DNA of 48,038 nucleotides from a virus (IMGVR_UViG_3300011840_000036:1-48038), one strand, 5' to 3'; positions 7,345-46,857 are shown, numbered from the stretch's first letter. Notes: generated from the sequence alone by a model not told the origin. A program made the numbers and translations.

Positions 7345-7575
7345 ATGCTTAAAACTGACGCACTTTTGTATTTCGGTTCAAAAACAAAACTTGCACAAGC
7401 TGCTGGTATTCGTTTGGCTTCGCTTTATAGCTGGAAAGGGGAGCTAGTACCTGAAGGTCGCGCGATGCGCCTGCAAGAGGCATCCGGCGGGGAACTTCAG
7501 TACGACCCCAAAGTTTATGACGAATATCGTAAGGCAAAGCGGGCGGGGCGGTTGAACAATGAAAATCACCCCTGA
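7345..7575 (+). CDS. dicC: DicC-type Cro-like regulator
   Basis: 76-aa protein MLKTDALLYFGSKTKLAQAAGIRLASLYSWKG... closely resembles E. coli DicC as I recall it; divergent from dicA. Confidence 0.85.
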   Translation: MLKTDALLYFGSKTKLAQAAGIRLASLYSWKGELVPEGRAMRLQEASGGELQYDPKVYDEYRKAKRAGRLNNENHP

Positions 7576-8110
7576 ACAGGTTTGTGAGGCTCTGGATGCC
7601 TGGGTATGCCGACCAGGAATGACACAGGAGCAGGCGACGATATTAATCACGGAAGCATTCTGGGCTCTGAAAGAACGCCCGAACATCGATGTTCAACGCG
7701 TCACGTTTAATGATGGCGAGGTTGATCAACGGGCGCTGGGCGTTAACCGGGTGAAGATATTCGAACGCTGGAAAGCTATCGACACCAGGGATAAGCGGGA
7801 AAAATTCACGGCGCTGATTCCGGCAATTATGGAGGCTATCCGGATCAGCGATTTCAGGTTGTATGGTGAAATTACTGACGGAAAAAGCATTACGTACATG
7901 ATCGCCGGGTTAAACAAAGAATATGGCGATGTGGTGGAGTCCGGGCTGCTTTTTGCGGATCCATCTGTTGTGGAACGTGAGACTGACGAGCTTATAGAAA
8001 AAGCTATTGCTTTCAAGCATGCGTATCGTCAGCAATATCAATATTACTTTGCAGATAAACAAATGTCTGCCAGGGGTTCGTATGAGTATCGATGCACTAC
8101 GATGGGCTAA
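7559..8110 (+). CDS. YdaT-like protein (cII-position regulatory/toxin-domain protein)
   Basis: 183-aa ORF overlapping the dicC stop; motif KFTALIPAIMEAI resembles the YdaT family core as recalled from Rac YdaT. Confidence 0.45.
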   Translation: MKITPEQVCEALDAWVCRPGMTQEQATILITEAFWALKERPNIDVQRVTFNDGEVDQRALGVNRVKIFERWKAIDTRDKREKFTALIPAIMEAIRISDFRLYGEITDGKSITYMIAGLNKEYGDVVESGLLFADPSVVERETDELIEKAIAFKHAYRQQYQYYFADKQMSARGSYEYRCTTMG

Positions 8111-9122
8111 AAAGGTGAAAACCGGCAGTTCATCCAGTAAGTCAGTATTGACCTGGCTTGCTGATATGTGCGGTGCCGATTTGTGTGCATACCCGTCTGT
8201 ATCTGCACTGGCAGAAGTAACGGAACTGAACAAAAAGACTGTGCAGGACAGCTTACGACACCTGATGGAGATTGGGTTAATTGTTGATACCGGTGAGAGA
8301 AAAGGCCGAACAAAGCAAATCGTGGTGTACCGACTTATCGGTGTAGAAGAAAGCGTTGCCGAGCCTGAATACACCCAAAAACGGGAGTCTTTAAAGGTGG
8401 GTAAAATTGGTGCTGTTAATAAAAACAGTACCGAAAATGGTTATGTTTCAGCACAAAACAGACCCAAAAACGGAACTCTTAGCTGCATGGAAAATAACCA
8501 AAGACACCCAAATTTTCCATCAAAGACACCCAAAAACGGATCACGGAACCCAAAGGAACCCAAAGATCTAAACCCCACACATAACGTACGCGAGAGTGCT
8601 CCGACCAGTGAGCAGGAAGTTTTGTCGTTACAGGCAGCCCCCCCTGTATTCCTGGATGGCCTGAGCGAACCCATCGGAAAATTTCCGATGACCGATAACT
8701 GGTATCCGTCACGGGATTTTCGACGACGGGCTGCGTTGTGGGGGATGGCTTTGCCGGAGACAGAATTCACACCTGCTGAACTTGCCGCATTCCGGGACTA
8801 CTGGGCAGCGGAGGGGAAAGTGTTTACGCAGGTTCAGTGGGAGCAGAAATTCGCCCGTCACGTAAATCACGTCAGGGCGCAGGTTAAACCAGTCAGCAAG
8901 GGGGTAAACCATGCAGCAGCACCAGGTGGCACCGCATCACGGGCAGTTCAGGAAATTCGGGAAGCACGTGAGCAGTGGGAACGTGAAAACGGATTTATCA
9001 GCGACGGAAACGGCTTGGAAGCTGTGGGAGCTCATGGGGGAGGTTTATTCGAACCGCTGGACCCAGAAGAACGGGGCCGCACCTTCGAAGCTCTGGATTG
9101 CACAGATTGGCGCGATGACTGA
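8082..9122 (+). CDS. Replication initiation protein (O-like: N-terminal winged helix, C-terminal DnaT-like domain)
   Basis: Start taken at MSIDALRWAKKVK... (ORF track begins at 8007); sits in the replication-gene position upstream of a P-like gene. Confidence 0.65.
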   Translation: MSIDALRWAKKVKTGSSSSKSVLTWLADMCGADLCAYPSVSALAEVTELNKKTVQDSLRHLMEIGLIVDTGERKGRTKQIVVYRLIGVEESVAEPEYTQKRESLKVGKIGAVNKNSTENGYVSAQNRPKNGTLSCMENNQRHPNFPSKTPKNGSRNPKEPKDLNPTHNVRESAPTSEQEVLSLQAAPPVFLDGLSEPIGKFPMTDNWYPSRDFRRRAALWGMALPETEFTPAELAAFRDYWAAEGKVFTQVQWEQKFARHVNHVRAQVKPVSKGVNHAAAPGGTASRAVQEIREAREQWERENGFISDGNGLEAVGAHGGGLFEPLDPEERGRTFEALDCTDWRDD

Positions 9123-9576
9123 GCAGCAAATCCGACAGGTCTGCCGCCAGTGCATGGACCGCTGCCGGGCGGGTGAAACATGGCCTCCGGACCTGGCTGA
9201 GTTTGTGGCGCTGATTTCGGAAAGCGGGGCCAATCCATTTGGTCTGACGGTGGATGCTGTGATGGAGGAGTACCGCCGCTGGCGCAATGAGTCCTGGCGA
9301 TACGACGGAAGTGATAAGTACCCTTGGTCTCAGCCTGTGCTGTATCACATTTGCCTCGAGATGCGTTCAAAGGGGATTGAACGCCAGATGACCGAAGGGG
9401 AATTAAAACGGCTTGCAGAACGGCAGCTGACGAAATGGGCAAAGCATGTTAGTCACGGCCTGAGCGTTCCGCCAGTACGGCGACAACTGGCGGCACCAAA
9501 ACGCCCGTTGGGACCAACGCCAATTGAGTTGCTGAAACAGGAGTATGAACGCCGGAAAGCGGCTGGTTTTGTTTGA
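8911..9576 (+). CDS. Replication protein P-like helicase loader
   Basis: C-terminal half aligns by eye with lambda P ([13 protein letters not shown]..., YPWSQ..., [14 protein letters not shown]...). Candidate starts at 8911 (AGGGGG RBS), 9034 and 9115 (ATGACTGA overlapping the O stop). Confidence 0.65.
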
Positions 9577-9610
9577 GTTGAGAAGTAATTTTTACCGGGA
9601 GGAAATTTTA

Positions 9611-10357
9611 ATGGAAACCGTTTTTGATGCACTGAAAGCAATGGGAAAAGCCACGTCGGTAGAGCTGGCTGCGCGACTTGATATCAGTCGTGAAGAAGTG
9701 CTGAACGAGCTGTGGGAACTGAAAAAGGCTGGCTTCGTTGATAAAAGCGTATACACCTGGCGTGTGGCTTATAACAACGTTCAGCAGGAACAGCCAGCGC
9801 CGGCAGAACTGTCGGAAGAAACCACCACGGCAACAGTCGCTAAAATTTCGGAGTGCGATTTAACTGCGACGGTTGAACAACGCGGACCACAAACGGCTGA
9901 TGAGCTGGCTACGTTGTTCGGTACAACATCACGCAAAGTGGCTTCAACGCTGGCAATGGCAATCAGCAAAGGTCGTCTGATTCGTGTAAACCAGAACGGT
10001 AAATTTCGTTACTGCATGCCGGGCGATAAGTTACCAGCAGAGCCGAAATCCGTGCCGGTAACGGAAAATGATGGTAAAGCCTTTCCTCAGCCAGCCGGTG
10101 TTGCGTTACCAGTACAGGAAGCTGCAACACAGGAAGATATTAAAACAGAAACTGTGGCTGATATTGTGCAATCGTTGCCATCGTTTACTGAAACGCGAGC
10201 GGATGACCTGGTTTTACCATCGCTGCATATGGCAAACCGCGAATTGCGTCGGGCGAAAAGTCATGTCCAGAAGTGGGCGCGAGTCTGCGCCGCGCTGCGG
10301 GAGCTGAACAAGCACCGGGATATGGTTGCCGGGATTTGTCGGAAGCCCGGGCAATGA
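9611..10357 (+). CDS. Winged-helix DNA-binding protein (DUF1627-like prophage protein)
   Basis: Start at [30 protein letters not shown]... with GGGAGG RBS; N-terminal wHTH followed by a Q/E/T-rich low-complexity region. Confidence 0.55.
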
Positions 10358-11024
10358 GCGGATGGTGCAGGCCTGAAATTATGATACTAACAATGAAGGT
10401 AAAATGCATTGGCAGTCTGATTGGTCGTAGTGAGGCGGCGGTCAGGATGAAAGCCCGGGTTAAGGGAATAAGCCTGATTCTGCGGGGTAATTTTCACCAG
10501 TCAACAAAATATCCGTAGCGCGATAACGGTCAAAAATCATGGCGCTGACACTTTTGTGCCACTGGAGATGACTGTACCTAAGTTCAGGGGAGAAGAACAC
10601 GTCCGGTGGGATGGTCGGGCCAGATTTAAAGGGCAGGTCATGGCTCCAGCCAGTACGCTGGCAATGGAGGCTGCCTGGCTGGAAATTGATATGGGAACCA
10701 CGCCACTCAGGGATTTACTGCCGGTCCAGAGAATAAATTCCTGTTACGGTTACACCACTGTGATCTTGCAAGTGCAGGAAAGTAGGTCTACACGGTAACG
10801 CGAGTGCGTGTAACTTTTGATGTTATTTCCGTAGAAACACCGGACAAATTTTCGCTGGCAGGTCATGCTGAAGGTATAATTCTGCAGATTATGGACAATT
10901 ACGGATATCCGGCAAGAGCCGGAAAAAGCATGCCGCCTTTAATTCTCAGTGGAAGATGGACTTGATTATACTCATTGCATTGTCAGAAATAGTTATCCAT
11001 TAAAGGCTGGCTATTCCAAACAGG

Positions 11025-11052
11025 ATGTTGATTACAAAAATGTAATCAACAT
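11025..11052. repeat. Perfect 28-bp palindrome ATGTTGATTACA-AAAA-TGTAATCAACAT (candidate operator or hairpin)
   Basis: 12-bp perfect inverted arms with a 4-nt spacer in the AT-rich region about 165 bp upstream of the 11217 gene. Confidence 0.6.
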
Positions 11053-11216
11053 GTAAGGTTTATACTCTTCAATATGCGTATAATTTTCCTTATTTTGTTA
11101 GCTTTAAATAACAAGCTATGCACGAGGTAAAGTCGGATAAGTTTATCTGGATGTAATATATATTATTTGTAGTGTTTATAACTTTATTTCATGATAACCA
11201 ATAAAAGGAGTTTTTT

Positions 11217-11975
11217 ATGAGGAACATAATGGCAGGTTTTTTAATATTTCTGTCTTCTGCTGCTTATGCTGATATCAATCTGTATGGTCCTGGTGGCCCG
11301 CATACAGCCTTGCTTGATGCAGCCAAACTTTATGCCGAAAAAACAGGTATTATAGTGAACGTTCATTACGGCCCACAGAACAAATGGAATGAAGATGCCA
11401 AAAAAAATGCAGATATCTTGTTTGGCGCATCAGAACAATCTGCTCTGGCTATCATTCGGGACCATAAAGACAGCTTCAGTGAAAAAGATATTCAGCCTCT
11501 TTATCTGCGAAAAAGTATTTTACTGGTAAAGAAAGGTAATCCTAAAAATATCCGGAGTATTGACGACCTGACCAGACCCGGGATTGGCGTAATTGTTAAT
11601 GATGGTGGTGGTACCAGTAATACATCAGGCACTGGCGTCTGGGAAGATATTGCCGGACGTAAAGGGAATATAGAAACTGTCGCCGCAATCCGAAAAAATA
11701 TTATTTTATATGCGCCCAATAGCGGAACTGCACGTAAGGCTCTTGAGAATCAGCCTGAAGCAGATGTCTGGATAACCTGGGCTGACTGGGCAGCCAGTAA
11801 TCCAGAAATTGGTGATGTCGTGGAAATAGCGCCAGACTACGTGATATGGCGTGATATGAACATTACAGTACGTCAGGATGCAAATGATGAAACCCGTCGA
11901 TTTGCAGAATGGCTACAAACCGATGAAGCGGCGCCTGCATTCAAAAAATATGGCTGGACCAGGAAAGGCACTTGA
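11217..11975 (+). CDS. Orphan periplasmic substrate-binding protein (ModA-like type 2 PBP fold) with signal peptide; moron
   Basis: 252-aa ORF; N-terminal MAGFLIFLSSAAYA signal-like segment; overall resemblance to ModA-type binding proteins (C-terminal ...FKKYGWT); AT-rich with its own promoter-like region and terminator; no permease or ATPase partner. Confidence 0.7.
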   Translation: MRNIMAGFLIFLSSAAYADINLYGPGGPHTALLDAAKLYAEKTGIIVNVHYGPQNKWNEDAKKNADILFGASEQSALAIIRDHKDSFSEKDIQPLYLRKSILLVKKGNPKNIRSIDDLTRPGIGVIVNDGGGTSNTSGTGVWEDIAGRKGNIETVAAIRKNIILYAPNSGTARKALENQPEADVWITWADWAASNPEIGDVVEIAPDYVIWRDMNITVRQDANDETRRFAEWLQTDEAAPAFKKYGWTRKGT

Positions 11976-11981
11976 CATCCT

Positions 11982-12010
11982 CCACGTCCTTCAGGACGTG
12001 GATTCTTTTT
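11982..12010 (+). terminator. Rho-independent terminator after the binding-protein moron
   Basis: CCACGTCC-ttca-GGACGTGG perfect 8-bp stem followed by ATTCTTTTT. Confidence 0.7.
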
Positions 12011-38955: not shown

Positions 38956-40110
38956 ATGCCGTTTGAGCGTCCCGGATTAAGCGAACTGCGTGAGAAAAGC
39001 CGGTCGTATGTGACCGGCCAGCTGGATGAGGCCGGTGCCCTGCTGCGGTTTTCCACGCTGGGGATTCTGGCGGATGCCGTGGCGGGCATGACGCATCTGC
39101 ATTACGGCTATCTTGACTGGATAGCGCAGCAGTGCACACCGGCCACGGCCACCGGGGAATATCTGGCGGCGTGGGGGGCACTGAAGGGCATCATCCGCAG
39201 GGCAGCAGTGGCGGCCACCTGTGAGGCGGTGCGCTTTACGGGCACACCGGGCAGCACGGTGAGCGCGGAGGCGGTGCTGAACCGTGCGGACGGGTATCAG
39301 TACACGCTGGATGAGGATGTGAGCATTGACAGTGACGGCAGCGGCACGGGGAGCATCACGGCGGTGCTGCCGGACCCGACGGATGACCGCAGCGGCGGTG
39401 GTGATGACGGTAACGCGGATGCCGGAACGACCCTGACACCGGATGTCACCTGGTCAGGCATCGACTCAACGGTGACGATGGTGAGTGCCGCCACCGGCGG
39501 CAGTGACACTGAGGATGAGGAAGCGTACCGCCAGCGCGTGCTGTATGCGTACCAGAACCCGCCTCAGGGCGGGGCGGCGGCGGACTATGTGCAGTGGGCG
39601 CTGGAAGTTCCCGGTGTGACCCGTGCATGGTGTGTGAACCGTGCACTGGGGTTCGGGACGGTGGGTGTTTACATCATGACGGACGGAGATGATGAAGACA
39701 ACGCCGGGGGCTTTCCTGACGGCACGGACGGGGTGGCAACGGATGAGGACTGGACGGACCGGAAAGCCACGGGGGTGCAGCTGACGGTGGCGGACCATAT
39801 CCGGCAGTACCAGCCGGTCACGGCGGTGGTGTACGTGATGTCGCCGGTGGCCAGAAGCATTGATTTTGAGATACAGGGGCTGAGCAGTGCCACGGCGGCA
39901 CTGAAGGCACGGGTGGAGAGTGCCATCAGCGAGGTGCTGTACAACGTGGGTGAACCGGACGGCAGCGGGGTGATTCACCTTTCAGACCTCTGGTACGCCA
40001 TTGCGGACACAGAGGGGACAGACGGGTTCATTCTGGTGTCTCCTGACAGCAACATCACGCTGTCGCAGGGAGAGCTGCCGGTGACCGGAACGATAACCTG
40101 GGCAACATGA
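38956..40110 (+). CDS. Baseplate J-like protein (Mu gp47-like)
   Basis: Start at MPFERPGLSELREKS... (ORF track begins upstream at a TTG, 38887); about 384 aa. Confidence 0.75.
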   Translation: MPFERPGLSELREKSRSYVTGQLDEAGALLRFSTLGILADAVAGMTHLHYGYLDWIAQQCTPATATGEYLAAWGALKGIIRRAAVAATCEAVRFTGTPGSTVSAEAVLNRADGYQYTLDEDVSIDSDGSGTGSITAVLPDPTDDRSGGGDDGNADAGTTLTPDVTWSGIDSTVTMVSAATGGSDTEDEEAYRQRVLYAYQNPPQGGAAADYVQWALEVPGVTRAWCVNRALGFGTVGVYIMTDGDDEDNAGGFPDGTDGVATDEDWTDRKATGVQLTVADHIRQYQPVTAVVYVMSPVARSIDFEIQGLSSATAALKARVESAISEVLYNVGEPDGSGVIHLSDLWYAIADTEGTDGFILVSPDSNITLSQGELPVTGTITWAT

Positions 40111-43100
40111 GGAACAGGATGAGTCGTTTTTCACATGATGACTACACGCGCGCGATGCTGAACCTTCTGCCGTCAGGGATTGCCTGGAGCCGTCTGCCTG
40201 ACAGCGTGCAGCACCGGCTGATACGCGGACTGGCACAGGCGTACCGGCAGAGTGACGCTGATGCGTGCGCACTGATAACGGGCGCCTTCCCGGAAACGGC
40301 GGATGCGCTCACTGATGAGTGGTATGCCTCGCTGGGGCTGAATGATGAATGCGGGACGCAGGCATCCACCACAGACCCGGCGCAGGCCAGAAAATTCATT
40401 CTGGCGAAACTGCTGTCGACGGGCGGGCAGAGTGTGGCGTATTTCACGGAGCTTGCGGCGACGATGGGGTACAGCATCAGTATCCGTGAGTACCGCACAC
40501 CACTGTGCGGATTTTCGTGGAGCGGGCATCTGCTGAGTGACGACAACCGGTTTAACTGGACCGTGGTGGTGGCCCCGCCGGGGGATGAGGTGACCACCTC
40601 ACGGGCGTACCTGGAGTGCCTGTTTCGTCGTTATGCCCCGGCGCATACGCTGGTGACGTTTGAGTGGCAGTTATCGTACAGCGCCGCCCTGAGCATTGCA
40701 TGGGACAACATCACACACGTTCTTTCCGGCGCGCTCACGGCAGATGAGGGGGTGGTGGTGTCGGGGGTGACGGTGAATGTTGTCATCAAATCCGCGTCGG
40801 GACAGCGGTATGTGGCGACAGTGACAACGGACAGTGAAGGGCACTGGTCGTATGAAATGGAGGATGATGATTTTGCGAACGGCTGGTATTCGGCGTATGC
40901 AGAGGCTGCCGTTGACATGCCGGATGACGTGACAGTACCGGTACGCAGTGAGGTGATAAATCTGCGGAAAACCGTGAGTGTGCGCGGTGTGAGCCTGTCG
41001 GTCACTGAGCTGGAGCTTGACAATGATGAGTGTGCTGCGGTTGCGGTGAGTGTCTGGCCGGAGAATGCTGAAGACCGGAGCTGGACTGTGACGGTCAGCG
41101 ATGAAAGCGTGGTGTCGGTGGTGGTCAACAGCGACAGTTCACTGACCGTGTGCGGGATGAGCGAAGGTGATGCGGTGGTGACGGTGACGACAAATGACGG
41201 CGGACACACGGCAACATTACAGGTCAGCTGTTACGTGCCGGCGGTTTTTGATTCGGTCTGTGCTTCATCGTCAAAAGCGCTGGTCAGTGTTGCTGATGTG
41301 GTGAACTGCCGTGTCAGCTTCGGCGACGGATATGTTGCTGCGGACCAGCTTGAAACGACAACCAGCGGGGGCTGGGCGAATATCCTGTTACCCGACTCAC
41401 TGGCAGACGGGGAGCTCCGGACAATCAGGGTGAGAACGGCGGGGAGTGTCAGGTTCAGGGTGTACGGGTACAGCAGCACGGCTTACAACGACCTGGTCAG
41501 ACTACGTCAACTTCCGGCGGGACAAAAATCCTGTAGCTACCTTGCGAGTAATACCCCCAGTCTGGTGAGTATTGACAGCGGCGCATTCCGTTTTTGCAAA
41601 AACGCTACGGCATTCGACAGTGCATTTTACCGGTGTAAAGGACTGACTGCGATACCTCCGGGGCTGTTTGCTGAGTGCGCCAGCGCCACGACGTTCTATC
41701 AGGCATTTTACGAATGTACGGGACTCAATGCAGTCGGTGACAGCGCATTTGCCGGGTGCACCGGTGCCACAACGTTTAAGGATACCTTTCGTGGTTGTAC
41801 CGGACTGAGAACGGTGGGTGACAGCGTGTTTGCCGGGTGCACCGGTGCCACAACGTTTGAGGATACCTTTTATGGTTGTACCGGACTGAGTGCCGTGGGG
41901 GACCATGTGTTTGCCGGGTGCACCAGTGCGACAACATTTTACAGGGTCTTTTATAACTGCAGGGAACTGAGCACGGTGGGTAACAGCGTGTTTGCCGGAT
42001 GTGCCAGTGCCACAACGTTTTTGCAGGCCTTTTATGGCTGCCAGGCGCTGACATCATTAGGTCAGGGGATATTTGCAGACTGCACCGGGGTGACGACATT
42101 CCTCCAGGCTTTTTATAACTGCAGGGGACTGACGGCATTGCCGGAAGGGATGTTTGACAGCTGCACTGCCGTGACCACGTTCAGTAATGCCTTTTATGGC
42201 TGCACGGCTCTGACAGCAATACCGGAAGGGTTGTTTGACAGTTGTACCGGGGTGACGACATTCAACCGGACGTTTTATGGCTGCGCGGCCCTGACAGCGA
42301 TACCGGCAAAATTGTTCGCAAACTGCACAGAGGTTGCGACGTTTGAGGGGGTGTTTTCGGGATGCTCGGGGCTGGTAACGATACCGGCAGGGTTATTTGA
42401 AAAACTCACCAGTGTCACGACGTTTGACAGCGCGTTTTACGGGTGCAGGGCACTGACAACAGTGGGTGACAGAGTATTTGCTGGTTGTACAGGTACCACA
42501 ACATTCGCAAGCGTATTTGAAGGTTGCACCGGACTGGTCACGATACCGGCTGACGTGTTTGCTGGTTGTTCGGGTGTCAGATCGTTTTACCGGTCGTTTT
42601 TGGGGTGTACAGGACTGGCAATGGTCCCCCCGGAATTGTTTGCAGATTGTACCGGAGCCACGACGTTCTATACGACATTTTACCGTTGTACCCGTCTGTC
42701 GGAAGTTCCTGCAGAGTTGTTTTCCGGTTGTACCGGAGCAAAGTCTTTCTATAAGACTTTTGGCGAATGTACCGGGTTGTCGGAGGTACCGGCCAGATTA
42801 TTTGCAGACTGTACCGGTGCCACGACGTTTGAGGGGGTGTTTTCGGGATGCCGGGGGCTGACAACGATACCGGCAGGGTTGTTCGCTGACAGCGCCAGTG
42901 TCACCACTTTCTTTGAGGCGTTTTACGAATGCACGGGCCTGACCGCGATACCGTCAGGATTGTTTGCAGACTGTGTAAGTGTGACAACCTTCAGGCGGAC
43001 CTTTTACGGTTGTTCCGGGCTGAGAACGCTGGGCGACAATGTGTTTGCCGGTTGTGTCAGTGCCACAACGTTTGAAGACACCTTTTATGGTTGTACCGGG

Positions 43101-44450
43101 CTGACAACGGTGGGAGACGGCGTGTTTGCCGGATGTACCAGTGTTACGACGTTCTACCGGGCGTTTTACGGCTGTACGGGGCTGACATCCATAGGAGAGG
43201 GAGTGTTTGCAGGTTGTACTGCTGTGACGACGTTCAGTAGTGCTTTTTATAACTGCAGGGGACTGACGGCATTGCCGGAAGGGATGTTTGACAGCTGCAC
43301 TGCCGTGACCACGTTCAGTAGTGCTTTTTATGGCTGTACGGCTCTGACAGCGATACCGGCAGGGCTGTTTGACAACTGCGTCTCTGTGACGACGTTCAGT
43401 TATGCCTTTGGCGACTGTGTGAGACTGAAGGCGCTGCCTGCCGGGCTGTTTGAAAACTGTAGTCGTGTGACGACCTTCTTCCGGACGTTTTATGGCTGCA
43501 CGGAACTGGTAACGGTGGGGGAAAGGGCGTTTGCAGGCTGCAGCAGTGCATCGACGTTCGAAGGCACATTTTACGACTGCACGAAGCTGACAACGCTGGG
43601 AGACAGTGTATTTGACGGATGTACAGGTGTGACGTCGTTCTATCAGACTTTCAGTGGCTGCACGAAGCTGACAGCAATACCTGCAGGGCTGTTTGACAGC
43701 AGCCACGGCGTGACAACCTTCTACCGGACATTTTACCGGTGTGCCGCCCTGACGACGGTGCCTGAGGCGGTATTTGACCGTTGTGTCAGCGCAGGGTCTT
43801 TCCAGGATACGTTTTTCGGTTGTACGGGGCTGACGATGTTACCTGCAGGATTGTTTGATAACTGTACCCGTGTGACGTCGTTTTACCGGACGTTCCGGGG
43901 CTGTACAGGTCTGAAGACACTGCCGGAAGGGTTGTTTGACAACAACACTGCTGTGACCACGTTCAGTCAGACTTTTTACGGCTGTACGGGGCTGGCGGTG
44001 CTGCCTGCCGGGCTGTTTGAAAACTGTACCGGAGTGACATCGTTCTATCAGACCTTTGATGGTTGCACGGGGCTGATGACGATACCGGACGGACTGTTTG
44101 CAGGACTCGCCAGCGTCACAACATTCAGAGAGACCTTTAACGGTTGTACGGGGCTGACCACTGTGGGCGACGGCTTGTTTGCGGGGTGCGTCAGTGCGAC
44201 GACGTTTGAAGGCACCTTTTACGGTTGCACAGGGCTGGAGAGTGATGTGAATGACATCCTCCCGGCGGAAGAGTACCCGCAAATAACCAGTGTGTACCGT
44301 TGTTTTTACAACTGCCGGTCATTGCAGGGAAGCGGATGTGCGCTCATTGAGAAGTTGCCTGGCGTGACGAGTTACGCGGATGCGTTTTATAACTGCGTAT
44401 CCCTGAGCGATTTCAGGACCTTGTCTGAGCGTTATCCAGTCTGGGTTTAA
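40107..44450 (+). CDS. Giant chimeric tail protein: N-terminal Mu gp48/YmfQ-like baseplate domain, Ig-like (Big_2-type) domains, then about 33 cysteine-rich 27-residue BspA-type leucine-rich repeats
   Basis: Single uninterrupted 1447-aa ORF; start overlaps the J-like stop; N-terminal ~190 aa resemble YmfQ/gp48; central segment VSVWPENAEDRSWTVTVSDESVVSVVVNSDSSLTVCGMSEGDAVVTVTT is Big_2-like; the remainder repeats the FxGCTGLTxIPxGLFxxCTxVTTFxxxF unit. Confidence 0.8.
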   Translation: MRNRMSRFSHDDYTRAMLNLLPSGIAWSRLPDSVQHRLIRGLAQAYRQSDADACALITGAFPETADALTDEWYASLGLNDECGTQASTTDPAQARKFILAKLLSTGGQSVAYFTELAATMGYSISIREYRTPLCGFSWSGHLLSDDNRFNWTVVVAPPGDEVTTSRAYLECLFRRYAPAHTLVTFEWQLSYSAALSIAWDNITHVLSGALTADEGVVVSGVTVNVVIKSASGQRYVATVTTDSEGHWSYEMEDDDFANGWYSAYAEAAVDMPDDVTVPVRSEVINLRKTVSVRGVSLSVTELELDNDECAAVAVSVWPENAEDRSWTVTVSDESVVSVVVNSDSSLTVCGMSEGDAVVTVTTNDGGHTATLQVSCYVPAVFDSVCASSSKALVSVADVVNCRVSFGDGYVAADQLETTTSGGWANILLPDSLADGELRTIRVRTAGSVRFRVYGYSSTAYNDLVRLRQLPAGQKSCSYLASNTPSLVSIDSGAFRFCKNATAFDSAFYRCKGLTAIPPGLFAECASATTFYQAFYECTGLNAVGDSAFAGCTGATTFKDTFRGCTGLRTVGDSVFAGCTGATTFEDTFYGCTGLSAVGDHVFAGCTSATTFYRVFYNCRELSTVGNSVFAGCASATTFLQAFYGCQALTSLGQGIFADCTGVTTFLQAFYNCRGLTALPEGMFDSCTAVTTFSNAFYGCTALTAIPEGLFDSCTGVTTFNRTFYGCAALTAIPAKLFANCTEVATFEGVFSGCSGLVTIPAGLFEKLTSVTTFDSAFYGCRALTTVGDRVFAGCTGTTTFASVFEGCTGLVTIPADVFAGCSGVRSFYRSFLGCTGLAMVPPELFADCTGATTFYTTFYRCTRLSEVPAELFSGCTGAKSFYKTFGECTGLSEVPARLFADCTGATTFEGVFSGCRGLTTIPAGLFADSASVTTFFEAFYECTGLTAIPSGLFADCVSVTTFRRTFYGCSGLRTLGDNVFAGCVSATTFEDTFYGCTGLTTVGDGVFAGCTSVTTFYRAFYGCTGLTSIGEGVFAGCTAVTTFSSAFYNCRGLTALPEGMFDSCTAVTTFSSAFYGCTALTAIPAGLFDNCVSVTTFSYAFGDCVRLKALPAGLFENCSRVTTFFRTFYGCTELVTVGERAFAGCSSASTFEGTFYDCTKLTTLGDSVFDGCTGVTSFYQTFSGCTKLTAIPAGLFDSSHGVTTFYRTFYRCAALTTVPEAVFDRCVSAGSFQDTFFGCTGLTMLPAGLFDNCTRVTSFYRTFRGCTGLKTLPEGLFDNNTAVTTFSQTFYGCTGLAVLPAGLFENCTGVTSFYQTFDGCTGLMTIPDGLFAGLASVTTFRETFNGCTGLTTVGDGLFAGCVSATTFEGTFYGCTGLESDVNDILPAEEYPQITSVYRCFYNCRSLQGSGCALIEKLPGVTSYADAFYNCVSLSDFRTLSERYPVWV
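41580..44420 (+). repeat. 81-bp-periodic coding repeat array with long near-identical copies (about 80 nt perfect identity at about 42109..42186 and 43243..43320)
   Basis: Direct comparison of the two copies shows an identical stretch followed by about 90 percent identity over a further ~60 nt; spacing 1134 bp (14 x 81). Confidence 0.75.
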
Positions 44451-44496: not shown

Positions 44497-45288
44497 GTGA
44501 AGAAAATATCTGATATCACACCGTATGTTGATGAAAACGACGAGTTTACTGACGGCGCGCCTGCCACAGGGCTGAAGCCAACGCCGTTGCTGGCGGCGTG
44601 GTTTAACCTCATTCAGCGGGAGCTGGTGAAGGTGGTGGAGGGGGCCGGGCTGACGCTGGATCCGACAGATGACACACAGCTCTGGCAGGCGTTATCGAAA
44701 TACTTTGCCTCACAGGAGAATGTGAACACTGCCATGGGTGCTCTGGGTACGATGGCCGGTCAGAACAGTGATGCGGTGGATATCACCGGCGGCGCGATAA
44801 CAGGGACATCCCTCACTGGCGATCTGACGGGCAATGCGGATACAGCCACAAAACTGAAAACGGGCCGGACAATCCAGGTAAATCTTGGCAGTACGGGTGC
44901 AGTTACTTTTGATGGCAGTGCGAATGTCACGCCGGGCGTGACCGGCACATTGCCGGTGAGCAGTGGTGGTACCGGGGCCACCACTGCGTCAGGGGCCAGA
45001 ACAAATCTGGGGCTGGGAGATGTGGCAACCCAGAATCTGAGTACGCTCGATGCCCGTTACCTGCTGACGACGGGCGGTGTGTCGGCGGTAAGGCTGGGGA
45101 GTGCCAGTTCGTATATCCCTCCCGGTAACGAAGTATCGTGGACCAGTAATCTCTCCTCCGGAAATGTGCTCACAGGGATTATTGTTCAGGAAACGGGATC
45201 AAACTCGGCAGACAATATTGGTGGGGTTTATTACCGCCAGTTGCAGTATTGCATAAACGGCACCTGGTATTCAGCTGAATCGCTATAG
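44497..45288 (+). CDS. Short tail fibre protein with P2 gpH-like C-terminal tip
   Basis: 263-aa ORF, GTG start with AAGGAG RBS; C-terminal ...QYCINGTWYSAESL resembles the P2 gpH C-terminus as recalled; Gly/Thr-rich segments; followed by a tail fibre assembly gene. Confidence 0.75.
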   Translation: MKKISDITPYVDENDEFTDGAPATGLKPTPLLAAWFNLIQRELVKVVEGAGLTLDPTDDTQLWQALSKYFASQENVNTAMGALGTMAGQNSDAVDITGGAITGTSLTGDLTGNADTATKLKTGRTIQVNLGSTGAVTFDGSANVTPGVTGTLPVSSGGTGATTASGARTNLGLGDVATQNLSTLDARYLLTTGGVSAVRLGSASSYIPPGNEVSWTSNLSSGNVLTGIIVQETGSNSADNIGGVYYRQLQYCINGTWYSAESL

Positions 45289-45297
45289 GATGAAAAT

Positions 45298-45837
45298 ATG
45301 CAGAATATAAAAAATTTCACGAAATACACCCCGGACAACCCGCCAGTGGAAGGGGCGGGATATCTCATCAGTGAGGATGGTCAGGACTGGTATGAATGCC
45401 AGACGCAGTTTGCAGAGGATACATACAAAGTTGCGTATGACAGTGACGGTATCGTGCGCAGTATTTCGACCGATGTGTCGGCACTTTGTCCTGTCAGTCT
45501 GAGTGTTGCTGAGGTTGAGTCGCTGCCGGACGGTGCGGATATCGACGGCAACTGGGTGTTTGACGGGGAGAGTGTGGTTGCGCGGACGCTGACGGCAGCG
45601 GAGTGGCAGGCAAGGGCGGAATCGCAACGAAGCGCGCTGATATCGGATGCGAAGGCGACAATCAGCCTCTGGCAGTCAGAGCTTCTGCTGGGCACCATCA
45701 GTGATGATGACAAAGAGAGTCTGACGGAATGGCTGGCTTACATAAAGGCGCTTCAGGCGCTGGATTTAAGTGATGTGACGGATGAGTCGAGTTACAACGC
45801 GACAGTCTGGCCGGATGAGCCGGGAGTCACCGCATAA
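45298..45837 (+). CDS. Tail fibre assembly protein (Tfa, P2 gpG/Mu U-like)
   Basis: 179-aa ORF immediately after the fibre gene; N-terminus MQNIKNFTKYTPDNPP typical of Tfa proteins. Confidence 0.75.
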   Translation: MQNIKNFTKYTPDNPPVEGAGYLISEDGQDWYECQTQFAEDTYKVAYDSDGIVRSISTDVSALCPVSLSVAEVESLPDGADIDGNWVFDGESVVARTLTAAEWQARAESQRSALISDAKATISLWQSELLLGTISDDDKESLTEWLAYIKALQALDLSDVTDESSYNATVWPDEPGVTA

Positions 45838-46056: not shown

Positions 46057-46857
46057 TTATTTATAAGAGTTAGATTTACTCTCAGTGCGTTTTTGTAACC
46101 AGTTTTTTAATATTGTATTTACTTCTTTTGCATGAGTGACATTCAATGCATGATTGGCGTCAGGTATAACTGCAAGCTCAGAGTGCGGGATCATTTTGTG
46201 CATTTCAAGAGCTTTCTCCAGTGGTATTCCTGTATCACCGGATCCATGAAGAATCAGGGTGGGCGTTTTGATCGTATGAACTTTACCTGAAATATCGTCT
46301 CGCTCCAGCATTGCATTCATAGCTAGTTTGATGTTTTCAGGTTCATGACGTAGCCATACTTGTCTCCATTTCGCTGCTTCAGAGATATTCTTTCCAAAGA
46401 AAACGGGTAATAATGAGGATATTATCTCTTCTTTTATTAGTGAGTTATGCCATCCATTGCATAGTTCCATATAACTGGATGCAATTTCTGGCGGGTCCTG
46501 CTCGACCTGAGTTGCCATAAGAATTAGTCCTGACAAACGCTCTGGATGTGACAGGGCAAATCGTAATGATATATACCCTCCCATCGACATCCCCCCTAAA
46601 ATAAACTTATCCAGTTGTAGTGAGTCTGCGACGTTTACAATGTCATCAACGATGTCATAGAGCGAGAATGGCTCAGTTTTTTCGGAGGTGGCATCGAAAC
46701 CCCGAACATTAATGCAAACAACTCTATGTTTTTCTTTTAGTTCGTCAAACTGGTATTTGAACATTTCATTATTCATGAAAAATCCATGAACGAAAATGAT
46801 AGGGGGATTGTTTTTATTTGTTTCAGTGTATCCAGAGTCAGTAAACGTAAAATTCAT
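46057..46857 (-). CDS. Alpha/beta-fold hydrolase (serine esterase/lipase-type), AT-rich cargo gene
   Basis: 266-aa ORF with nucleophile elbow GGMSMGG and a plausible Ser-Asp-His triad (HGSGDTG, ANHALN); markedly lower GC than the flanking tail genes. Confidence 0.8.
   Translation of the reverse strand: MNFTFTDSGYTETNKNNPPIIFVHGFFMNNEMFKYQFDELKEKHRVVCINVRGFDATSEKTEPFSLYDIVDDIVNVADSLQLDKFILGGMSMGGYISLRFALSHPERLSGLILMATQVEQDPPEIASSYMELCNGWHNSLIKEEIISSLLPVFFGKNISEAAKWRQVWLRHEPENIKLAMNAMLERDDISGKVHTIKTPTLILHGSGDTGIPLEKALEMHKMIPHSELAVIPDANHALNVTHAKEVNTILKNWLQKRTESKSNSYK

Follow-up and report, generated by a model that had tools for sequence, protein, structure and literature searches.

To our knowledge, the receptor-binding proteins that have been characterised in contractile-tailed phages are almost all trimeric fibres or spikes. 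Conserved baseplate subunits with added domains are also known, as in the "evolved" Dit proteins and the carbohydrate-binding extensions of Tal in siphophages, and in T4 gp7. In the baseplate of phage Mu, each of the six wedges consists of one gp46, two gp47, and one gp48, and a gp48 loop, residues 133-155, anchors the trimeric fibre by its N-terminus (PMC11915804). Here, we describe the corresponding gene of an Escherichia coli prophage, IMGVR_UViG_3300011840_000036:1-48038 (the window, meaning the whole 48,038-nt stretch of DNA that was analysed). The N-terminal ~190 residues of its product are homologous to Mu gp48 (PDB 9ki1), whose counterpart in P2 is gpI, and the gene occupies the same slot, directly after gp47/Baseplate_J. 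Mu gp48 has 180 aa and ends after the wedge domain, whereas this protein continues for ~1260 residues more, through immunoglobulin (Ig)-like domains into a long leucine-rich repeat (LRR) array of the BspA type. On balance, and with modest confidence, we think that this arm is an accessory host-surface adhesin or a second receptor-binding device mounted on the wedge.

The gene and its parts are as follows, with AlphaFold (AF2) confidence given as the predicted local distance difference test (pLDDT):

40119..44450, plus strand: whole gene from its probable start, Gp48 wedge subunit with C-terminal Ig stalk, LRR solenoid, and cap
40152..40664, plus strand: Mu Gp48/BW3 wedge domain, residues 16-186, including the counterpart of the fibre-docking loop region (PF10076, phrog_203, 9ki1_a)
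40674..40967, plus strand: Ig-like beta-sandwich 1, residues ~190-287 (AF2 pLDDT ~84; weak Big_13 match)
40980..41225, plus strand: Big_2 Ig-like domain, residues 292-373, first domain of the putative mobile cassette (PF02368; pLDDT ~90)
41226..41516, plus strand: linker beta-sandwich, residues 374-470, before the LRR array (AF2 strands, pLDDT 60-85)
41517..44216, plus strand: LRR solenoid, one degenerate N-terminal unit plus 32 regular 27-residue units (regular units from nt 41625)
43156..44190, plus strand: apparently conversion-prone part of the array, units 20-31 (comparison of E. coli strains)
44217..44447, plus strand: C-terminal cap, residues 1371-1447, two degenerate coils plus helices (homologous caps in the Klebsiella gpI-LRR fusions and in the relative P0029)

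The open reading frame (ORF) runs unbroken from 40107 to 44450 on the plus strand, encoding 1447 aa with its sole stop at the end. At 40107, the ATG and the stop codon of the Baseplate_J/gp47 gene upstream overlap (ATGA). A second ATG, at 40119, lies five bases after a GAGGA Shine-Dalgarno sequence, is the start used in RefSeq, and gives the MSRF/MSRY opening with which all homologues begin. Because of these features, the true start is probably 40119, with a product of 1443 aa; residue numbers throughout are counted from the ATG at 40107.

Profile searches place a wedge domain at the N-terminus. Pfam Phage_Mu_Gp48 (PF10076, YmfQ/DUF2313) matches residues 16-186 with 74.4 bits (cutoff 37.4), and the gene product matches phrog_203 (baseplate wedge subunit) at E 1e-43. 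The Mu structure 9ki1_a, "Baseplate protein gp48," aligns at E 9e-14 (query 14-186 onto 7-174 of 180), and the alignment covers the region of the fibre-docking loop without deletion. At 1443/1447 aa the protein is an extended member of the family rather than the typical single-domain Gp48 form of ~180-200 aa. Downstream, Pfam Big_2 (PF02368) matches residues 292-373, and LRR_5 (PF13306) matches six stretches with 120 bits (cutoff 27.7). NCBIfam TIGR02167, "PARCEL repeat-containing surface protein," scores 83.6 bits (cutoff 30), and phrog_9915 ("unknown function") matches at E 1.5e-273. Pfam DUF285 has no match in the protein at E<=0.01, and Pfam and PHROG profile searches found no fibre or spike family on residues 288-1447. 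RefSeq already lists the protein (WP_162821091) as a "leucine-rich repeat protein." An original prediction, made from the sequence of the window, had described a Gp48 domain fused to Big_2-type Ig domains and a ~1250-residue BspA-type array. The Pfam and PHROG matches bear out this domain architecture, with two corrections: the array spans ~975 residues (471-1447), ~1250 residues being the length of the whole non-Gp48 extension, and the Ig region holds three beta-sandwich domains, not Big_2 alone.

One rival explanation is that the fusion is an assembly error in the repeats, or else a decaying, unused prophage gene. The database holds many "partial" entries of 705 and 945 aa, which indicates that short-read assemblies break within the array, and a decayed prophage remnant in strain E24377A retains an in-frame-deleted copy of 844 aa. 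Furthermore, because the 81-nt units always keep frame on recombination, in-frame variants alone prove no selection. Against this, the ORF is intact in five independently finished E. coli chromosomes: it encodes 1443 aa in four (ST2350, C8, PapM-36-2, and numer 3) and 1470 aa in the fifth (DS26-1), a difference of exactly one 27-residue unit, and all five prophages are otherwise complete. ORF continuity is thus independent of the window, and the arms of P2-type orthologues in Klebsiella (see below) are under purifying selection over pS ~0.48 (dN/dS 0.27). The ORF is real, free of any frameshift or internal stop as originally predicted, and assembly artefact is ruled out; taken as a whole, the artefact or non-functional explanation is extremely improbable and largely refuted.

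The repeat array has a period of 27 aa, with an autocorrelation of 0.55 at lag 27 compared to ~0.16 for unrelated lags. The regular part consists of 32 units (residues 507-1370) in perfect register with zero indels, flanked by degenerate units at 480-506 and 1371-1447. The unit consensus is F-y-G-C-t-g-L-t-t-v-(P/G)-x-g-(L/V)-F-a-g-C-t-s-v-T-T-F-x-x-t, in which F0, C3, L6, F14, and F23 are invariant (32/32 units) and C17 is present in 27/32; the array holds 65 cysteines. These counts agree well with the ~33 tandem, Cys-rich, 27-residue repeats of the original prediction. DNA-level identity among units averages 60% (73-80% over short runs by Tandem Repeats Finder), which suggests that the units are old and diverged at the DNA level. 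Within the window copy, phases 24 and 25, beside the main strand, vary most between units.

Structure prediction and fold searches identify the array, at the level of models, as an LRR solenoid. We modelled residues 1-640 (from a 13-sequence alignment) and residues 374-1447 with AF2. The N-terminal model has beta-sandwiches at ~190-287 (pLDDT ~84), 292-373 (~90), and 374-470 (~65-77), followed by the first LRR coils (~90), and a fold search with it returned generic tandem-Ig arrays only. The C-terminal model (mean pLDDT 88.6, predicted template modelling score 0.67) is a single solenoid of 35 coils, one per 27 residues, and then a helical cap; each coil has short strands at phases 22-24, 0-1, and 8-9. 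The top 50 PDB matches found by Foldseek are all LRR solenoids, including Toll/TLR ectodomains, LGR4/5, SHOC2, and the BspA-type surface proteins 4fs7 and 4gt6 of Bacteroides and Faecalibacterium, and none of these 50 is a tailspike or fibre beta-helix. At the sequence level, the repeats align to variable lymphocyte receptors (VLRs), repebodies, and designed LRRs of 24 residues, each unit having three residues inserted. Profile and fold searches therefore give LRRs only, and the original assignment of the repeats to this fold, rather than to a standard tail-fibre beta-helix, holds.

The same repeat class and predicted fold occur in the BspA-type LRR_5/PARCEL surface proteins, e.g. Bacteroides ovatus BACOVA_04585 (4fs7), many of which also share the linker and cap. 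These proteins are secreted or lipid-anchored and often carry BACON or fimbrillin-like domains, whereas the N-terminus here is a phage wedge domain in place of a signal peptide. The unit length also differs, with 27 residues here compared to 25-26 in canonical PARCEL repeats (period 25 in PMC2996958) and ~23 in LRR_5. The 2010 PARCEL paper predicted amphipathic helices for TIGR02167/DUF285 repeats (PMC2996958). The TIGR02167-class repeats described here align to LRRs and are confidently modelled as a solenoid with short beta-strands and coils without helices. On the basis of the models, the amphipathic-helix prediction is probably wrong for the PARCEL repeat class.

To determine how widely the arm is distributed, we relied on alignment-based locus scans and an exhaustive HMMER search; a word-index homology search with the cap alone as query returned E. 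coli fragments only. With the last three units plus the cap as query, HMMER found 11,942 cluster representatives at E<=1e-3. Among the 150 best of these, the anchor is Gp48 in one (this E. coli cluster) and gpI in four (677-1009 aa), and lipoprotein- or signal-type N-termini occur in ~60-75. When 50 of the best 150 were searched against Pfam, the families present were DUF285 in 24, BACON in 16, LRR_5 in 15, BACON_2 in 13, Mfa_like_1 (fimbrillin-like) in 8, Big_2 in 7, Tail_P2_I in 5, and DUF2612 in 2. These comparisons suggest that the module is chiefly a bacterial cell-surface element that was captured by two phage wedge families.

The boundary of the captured segment can be located by comparison with sibling prophages. 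In the EC12 sibling, a 389-aa YmfQ protein is 85% identical over residues 5-287 and unrelated beyond, which places a module junction at residue 287. The Ig-like beta-sandwich 1, which ends there, is found in all relatives of this prophage lineage, and some relatives end just after it, as Gp48 forms of 278-293 aa. P0015 (E. coli, 547 aa) has Gp48, the Ig domain, and several Big_2-like domains but no LRR, and P0029 (681 aa) is a miniature version with ~6 LRR units and a homologous cap. Thus, the junction at ~287 accepts several different C-terminal modules. In EC12, where the alternative module occupies locus L002, 7126-9382, the 389-aa YmfQ is followed by a 354-aa protein of unknown function (phrog_8291; no Pfam match) and then by the same 263-aa fibre and tail fibre assembly (Tfa) genes; the C-terminus of this YmfQ carries ~19-residue tandem repeats, QEPLVINSAMLQSGYLT. 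The EC12 module at the junction may represent a different accessory attachment system.

The closest counterpart of the fusion is the 1008-aa "tail protein I" of Klebsiella phage ST16-OXA48phi5.4 (Peduoviridae, Reipivirus). Its N-terminus is Tail_P2_I; beyond this, it consists of homologues of the Big_2, linker, LRR, and cap regions (residues 295-1443; 31-37% identity). The Big_2 domain corresponds to Klebsiella gpI residues 186-270, and the linker is conserved with both Klebsiella gpI and P0029; its motif FGDG is the counterpart of DWGDG in relatives (consensus of 50 relatives). A homologous cassette is therefore attached to the C-terminus of the equivalent wedge subunit, again followed by a separate short fibre gene. 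It differs in its Tail_P2_I anchor, its ~20 units, its closely kept length, the lack of an extra Ig domain before Big_2, and its host genus. In an alignment-based scan, the P2-type fusion turned up in 66 IMG/VR contigs plus Klebsiella michiganensis and K. spallanzanii genomes, with a length of 1006-1009 aa in almost all (~58 contigs), and the Klebsiella gpI-LRR matches PHROG 9915 at E = 0.

The Klebsiella set provided enough orthologues to study the evolution of the arm. From 56 distinct coding sequences of the P2-type orthologues, we obtained the following rates (pN and pS, nonsynonymous and synonymous differences per site):

gpI anchor: pN 0.007, pS 0.16, dN/dS 0.04
Linker: pN 0.16, pS 0.49, dN/dS 0.23
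LRR array: pN 0.18, pS 0.48, dN/dS 0.27
Cap: pN 0.14, pS 0.41, dN/dS 0.26

By these estimates, the Klebsiella arm is under purifying selection and yet has diverged far more than its anchor. The mean protein p-distance is 0.014 for the anchor and 0.245 for the arm, compared to 0.05 for the N-terminal 150 aa of the fibre and 0.20 for its C-terminal part. Because pS in the arm exceeds pS in the anchor, the arm appears to have a separate history involving module exchange. Arm distances are bimodal (~0.04 or ~0.35) and uncorrelated with fibre distances (Spearman -0.02). Per position, the scaffold is frozen (0.01-0.27 bits) and the surface phases vary (0.5-1.2 bits). Altogether, the Klebsiella pattern is what would be expected for a second, independently reassorting specificity module.

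These data also bear on a second explanation, namely that the arm is a structural elaboration only: a strut, skirt, or spacer that lends stability to the baseplate periphery, stows or orients the fibre, or sets the distance from the cell surface, with no specific ligand. Gp48/gpI-type proteins are structural, and the extra domains of the enlarged T4 wedge protein gp7 are an example of structural elaboration. Consistent with a structural role, the length of the P2-type arm fusion is tightly kept (1006-1009 aa in ~58 contigs), surface variation is not limited to one face, and the unit count in strain numer 3 is unchanged after 10-12 units were overwritten. However, an arm ~17-fold more divergent than its anchor (0.245 vs 0.014) is unexpected of a pure strut. 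The arm is as diverse as the receptor-binding end of the fibre, it falls into discrete allele classes whose reassortment is independent of the fibre, and its length differs between lineages (~6, 20, 34, and 35 units). Elsewhere, the module sits on bacterial surface proteins of the adhesin type. We therefore consider a purely structural arm unlikely, while leaving it some room.

If the arm is instead an accessory adhesin, the Mu baseplate offers a model of how it would be displayed. In this model, the protein serves as BW3/gp48 in a contractile-tail baseplate of the "simple" Mu type and would be present in six copies per virion, as in Mu. Its Gp48 domain would build the wedge with gp46 and gp47 and offer a docking loop to the 263-aa trimeric fibre encoded downstream. 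The mobile cassette, consisting of Big_2, the linker, a BspA/PARCEL-type LRR solenoid of ~35 coils, and the cap, would have been acquired behind the lineage-specific Ig domain. Six monomeric arms would then project from the baseplate periphery beside six short fibres, one arm and one fibre for each wedge subunit. From generic sizes of ~4 nm for an Ig-like domain (x3) and ~0.48 nm for an LRR coil (x~35), the arm may be ~25-30 nm long. The arms would contact a host-surface structure reversibly and multivalently, alongside the fibre rather than in place of it. We infer virion incorporation, stoichiometry, and geometry from this Mu-based model, and the binding function of the arm and its host-surface ligand are likewise predictions.

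The relationship between arm and fibre differs from the original prediction, in which the shortness of the 263-aa fibre implied that the arm supplies the long adhesive structure of the tail. The LRR-less siblings carry the same 263-aa fibre, and we rejected the idea on this ground. Because these siblings and the Klebsiella fusions all keep a separate fibre, the arm would be additive, not compensatory. Its proposed role as an adhesin or receptor-binding module fares better: this is the best-supported function, given the evolution of the Klebsiella arm and a gene cluster in Phapecoctavirus tuntematon, and we retain it as a prediction. LRR+cap proteins lie in the receptor-binding cluster of lytic E. 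coli phages; in P. tuntematon, an 890-aa LRR+cap "tail protein" is encoded right after the tail-fibre and colanic-acid-degrading spike genes.

A binding arm could also be directed at something other than the host. In this third explanation, the Ig and LRR domains would hold virions on mucus glycoproteins, on other gut surfaces, or on bacteria that are not hosts, and so raise the encounter rate while leaving host specificity to other parts; a similar role is proposed for the Ig-like decorations of capsids in the "bacteriophage adherence to mucus" model. All carriers are prophages of gut Enterobacteriaceae, isolated from human and animal stool or rectal samples, and Ig-like and BACON/LRR modules are typical of gut surface proteins. 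An LRR tail-module protein of coral-mucus vibriophages has been discussed in a similar light (PMC10945359). However, the arm would sit on the baseplate wedge beside the fibre, facing the host envelope, and not on the capsid. Moreover, discrete allele classes with a diversity comparable to that of fibre tips are more typical of tracking variable bacterial surfaces. Non-host adhesion is thus, in our view, distinctly unlikely.

Comparison of E. coli strains shows that the array itself is plastic. There are two allele classes, which differ only in an internal patch at ~43156-44190; between them, identity is 97-99% in the cap and over most of the fibre. In numer 3 and DS26-1, units 22-31 are 93-100% DNA copies of units 8-17 of the same gene, the product of an intragenic conversion or duplication. 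In each of these strains 10-12 units were overwritten, and in numer 3 the total unit count was kept; the extra unit of DS26-1 sits near residue 1056. In the window copy, units 7 and 21 are 97.5% identical. We considered whether the two allele classes represent imported or diversifying variation tied to the fibre allele, and rejected this since the internal patch copies the gene's own units. We also rejected the 844/848-aa variant as a functional alternative, as it sits in the decayed E24377A remnant. This remnant (locus L089, 6248-8782) occupies the same ompW/yciE site as the window prophage and has lost most head and tail genes, retaining the fibre, Tfa, and the in-frame-deleted 844-aa LRR gene without Big_2 and most of the linker.

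Several observations weigh against a receptor-binding arm. The overwriting of 10-12 unique units with the ORF kept means that the exact surface of this stretch may be uncritical, at least in the numer 3 and DS26-1 prophages. Variation in the Klebsiella arms is not concentrated on the concave face: all surface phases vary, and we rejected that expectation. The Gp48 relatives of 285-293 aa without an arm indicate that the arm is accessory. The isolated Gp48 domain was modelled poorly (pLDDT 34-65), which is unsurprising in a protein that folds inside a heterotetrameric wedge. Finally, in the literature we searched, neither a description of a wedge-LRR fusion nor a functional test of any phage LRR protein turned up.

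In a stronger version of the adhesin interpretation, contractile-tailed phages would have, besides trimeric fibres and spikes, a third kind of receptor-binding element: the LRR arm, as a genuine monomeric device for receptor recognition. Its specificity would be retuned by copying and shuffling of 27-residue units, as in numer 3 and DS26-1, and by whole-arm swaps between Mu-type and P2-type wedges, in a loosely VLR-like manner. We regard this as highly doubtful. The repeats do align to the 24-residue LRRs of lamprey VLRs and repebodies, and the array is likewise remodelled by copying of LRR units. The likeness is an analogy only: VLRs have far fewer units (the matched chains are of 170-270 aa) than the ~35 found here, and programmed or adaptive copying is unsupported.

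The genes around the fusion are those of a Mu-like baseplate, in the order gp43-like, gp44, gp45, gp46, gp47, the Gp48-LRR gene, the 263-aa fibre, and Caudo_TAP. The immediate neighbours are:

38956..40110, plus strand: Baseplate_J/gp47 wedge subunit, partner of Gp48 (its stop overlaps the ATG at 40107)
44497..45288, plus strand: 263-aa trimeric-type tail fibre (tail-fibre PHROGs; PDB fibres 8vbx and 9cuy)
45298..45837, plus strand: tail fibre assembly protein (Caudo_TAP)

The 263-aa protein also matches the N-terminus of Mu fibre S, weakly, and by these matches it is a bona fide fibre, which we expect to dock on the Gp48 domain. A second spot that varies between E. coli strains lies at 45094-45390, covering the last ~60 fibre residues and the start of Tfa, where DNA identity is 73-85% compared to 97-100% around it.

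The window as a whole is an E. coli prophage with lambdoid early genes (dicB/ydfA/hokD), a lambda-like head, and a Mu-like contractile tail, integrated beside truncated ompW and yciE. The guanine plus cytosine (GC) fraction steps up at ~23000, from ~0.45-0.51 in the early/lysis region to 0.57-0.65 in the head/tail module; together, the GC step and the module types point to a mosaic prophage. Within the LRR array, GC dips to 0.53-0.56, so the composition of the arm cassette is unlike that of the neighbouring baseplate genes. Just past the fibre-assembly gene, at the prophage end, an alpha/beta-fold hydrolase gene (46057-46857, minus strand, GC 0.38) has the look of a moron (cargo gene); in DS26-1 and E24377A it is broken up into two ORFs. 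The ST2350 copy of the prophage (locus L004, 17928-18081) has tRNA-Thr and tRNA-Gly genes between the DNA methyltransferase and lysis genes, and the same pair is present in the E24377A remnant. At ~7500-12000, the early ORFs of the window differ from those of the otherwise 99.6% identical ST2350 prophage, and ST2350 coordinates yield stop codons; a cargo block encoding hypothetical proteins seems to have been replaced there.

How new is the fusion? As a sequence class it is not new, since it is present in RefSeq, in PHROG 9915, and in dozens of P2-type counterparts, one of them from a classified phage species. The original prediction implied a more exceptional fusion than this: the same cassette is attached to P2 gpI in ~60 viral contigs, and BspA-type LRR proteins are predicted in many phages, such as phage G, Aeromonas D3, Klebsiella N1M2 and Eowyn, and a crAss-like phage. 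In P. tuntematon (gp128), jumbo phages (BspA-like proteins), and Goslar (DUF7941-LRR proteins), LRR solenoids occur in tail or receptor-binding clusters and are predicted at the baseplate periphery. These proteins are separate or on other anchors such as DUF7941, and not on a gp48/gpI wedge subunit; the Goslar preprint places LRR and beta-helix domains on DUF7941 proteins by prediction only. A structural baseplate subunit decorated with a binding module is itself a known design. Evolved Dit, Tal, and T4 gp7 share the concept, without homology, and involve other subunits, folds (carbohydrate-binding modules, not LRR), and tail types. The wedge-LRR form is uncharacterised in the literature we searched, in which no paper combines "leucine-rich repeat," "baseplate wedge," and "phage," and a paper on receptor-binding proteins of Klebsiella temperate phages mentions neither LRR nor baseplate.

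LRRs are a proven engineerable binder scaffold (repebodies, VLRs). A natural LRR arm on a phage, with a module boundary as clean as that at residue 287, would therefore be attractive for the retargeting of phages or tailocins. No function has been assigned to this large family (PHROG 9915; ~60 P2-type prophages), so one experiment would annotate many genomes. If our interpretation is correct, simple baseplates of the Mu/P2 type would gain, through a wedge subunit with its own long monomeric LRR solenoid, a second specificity module that evolves independently.

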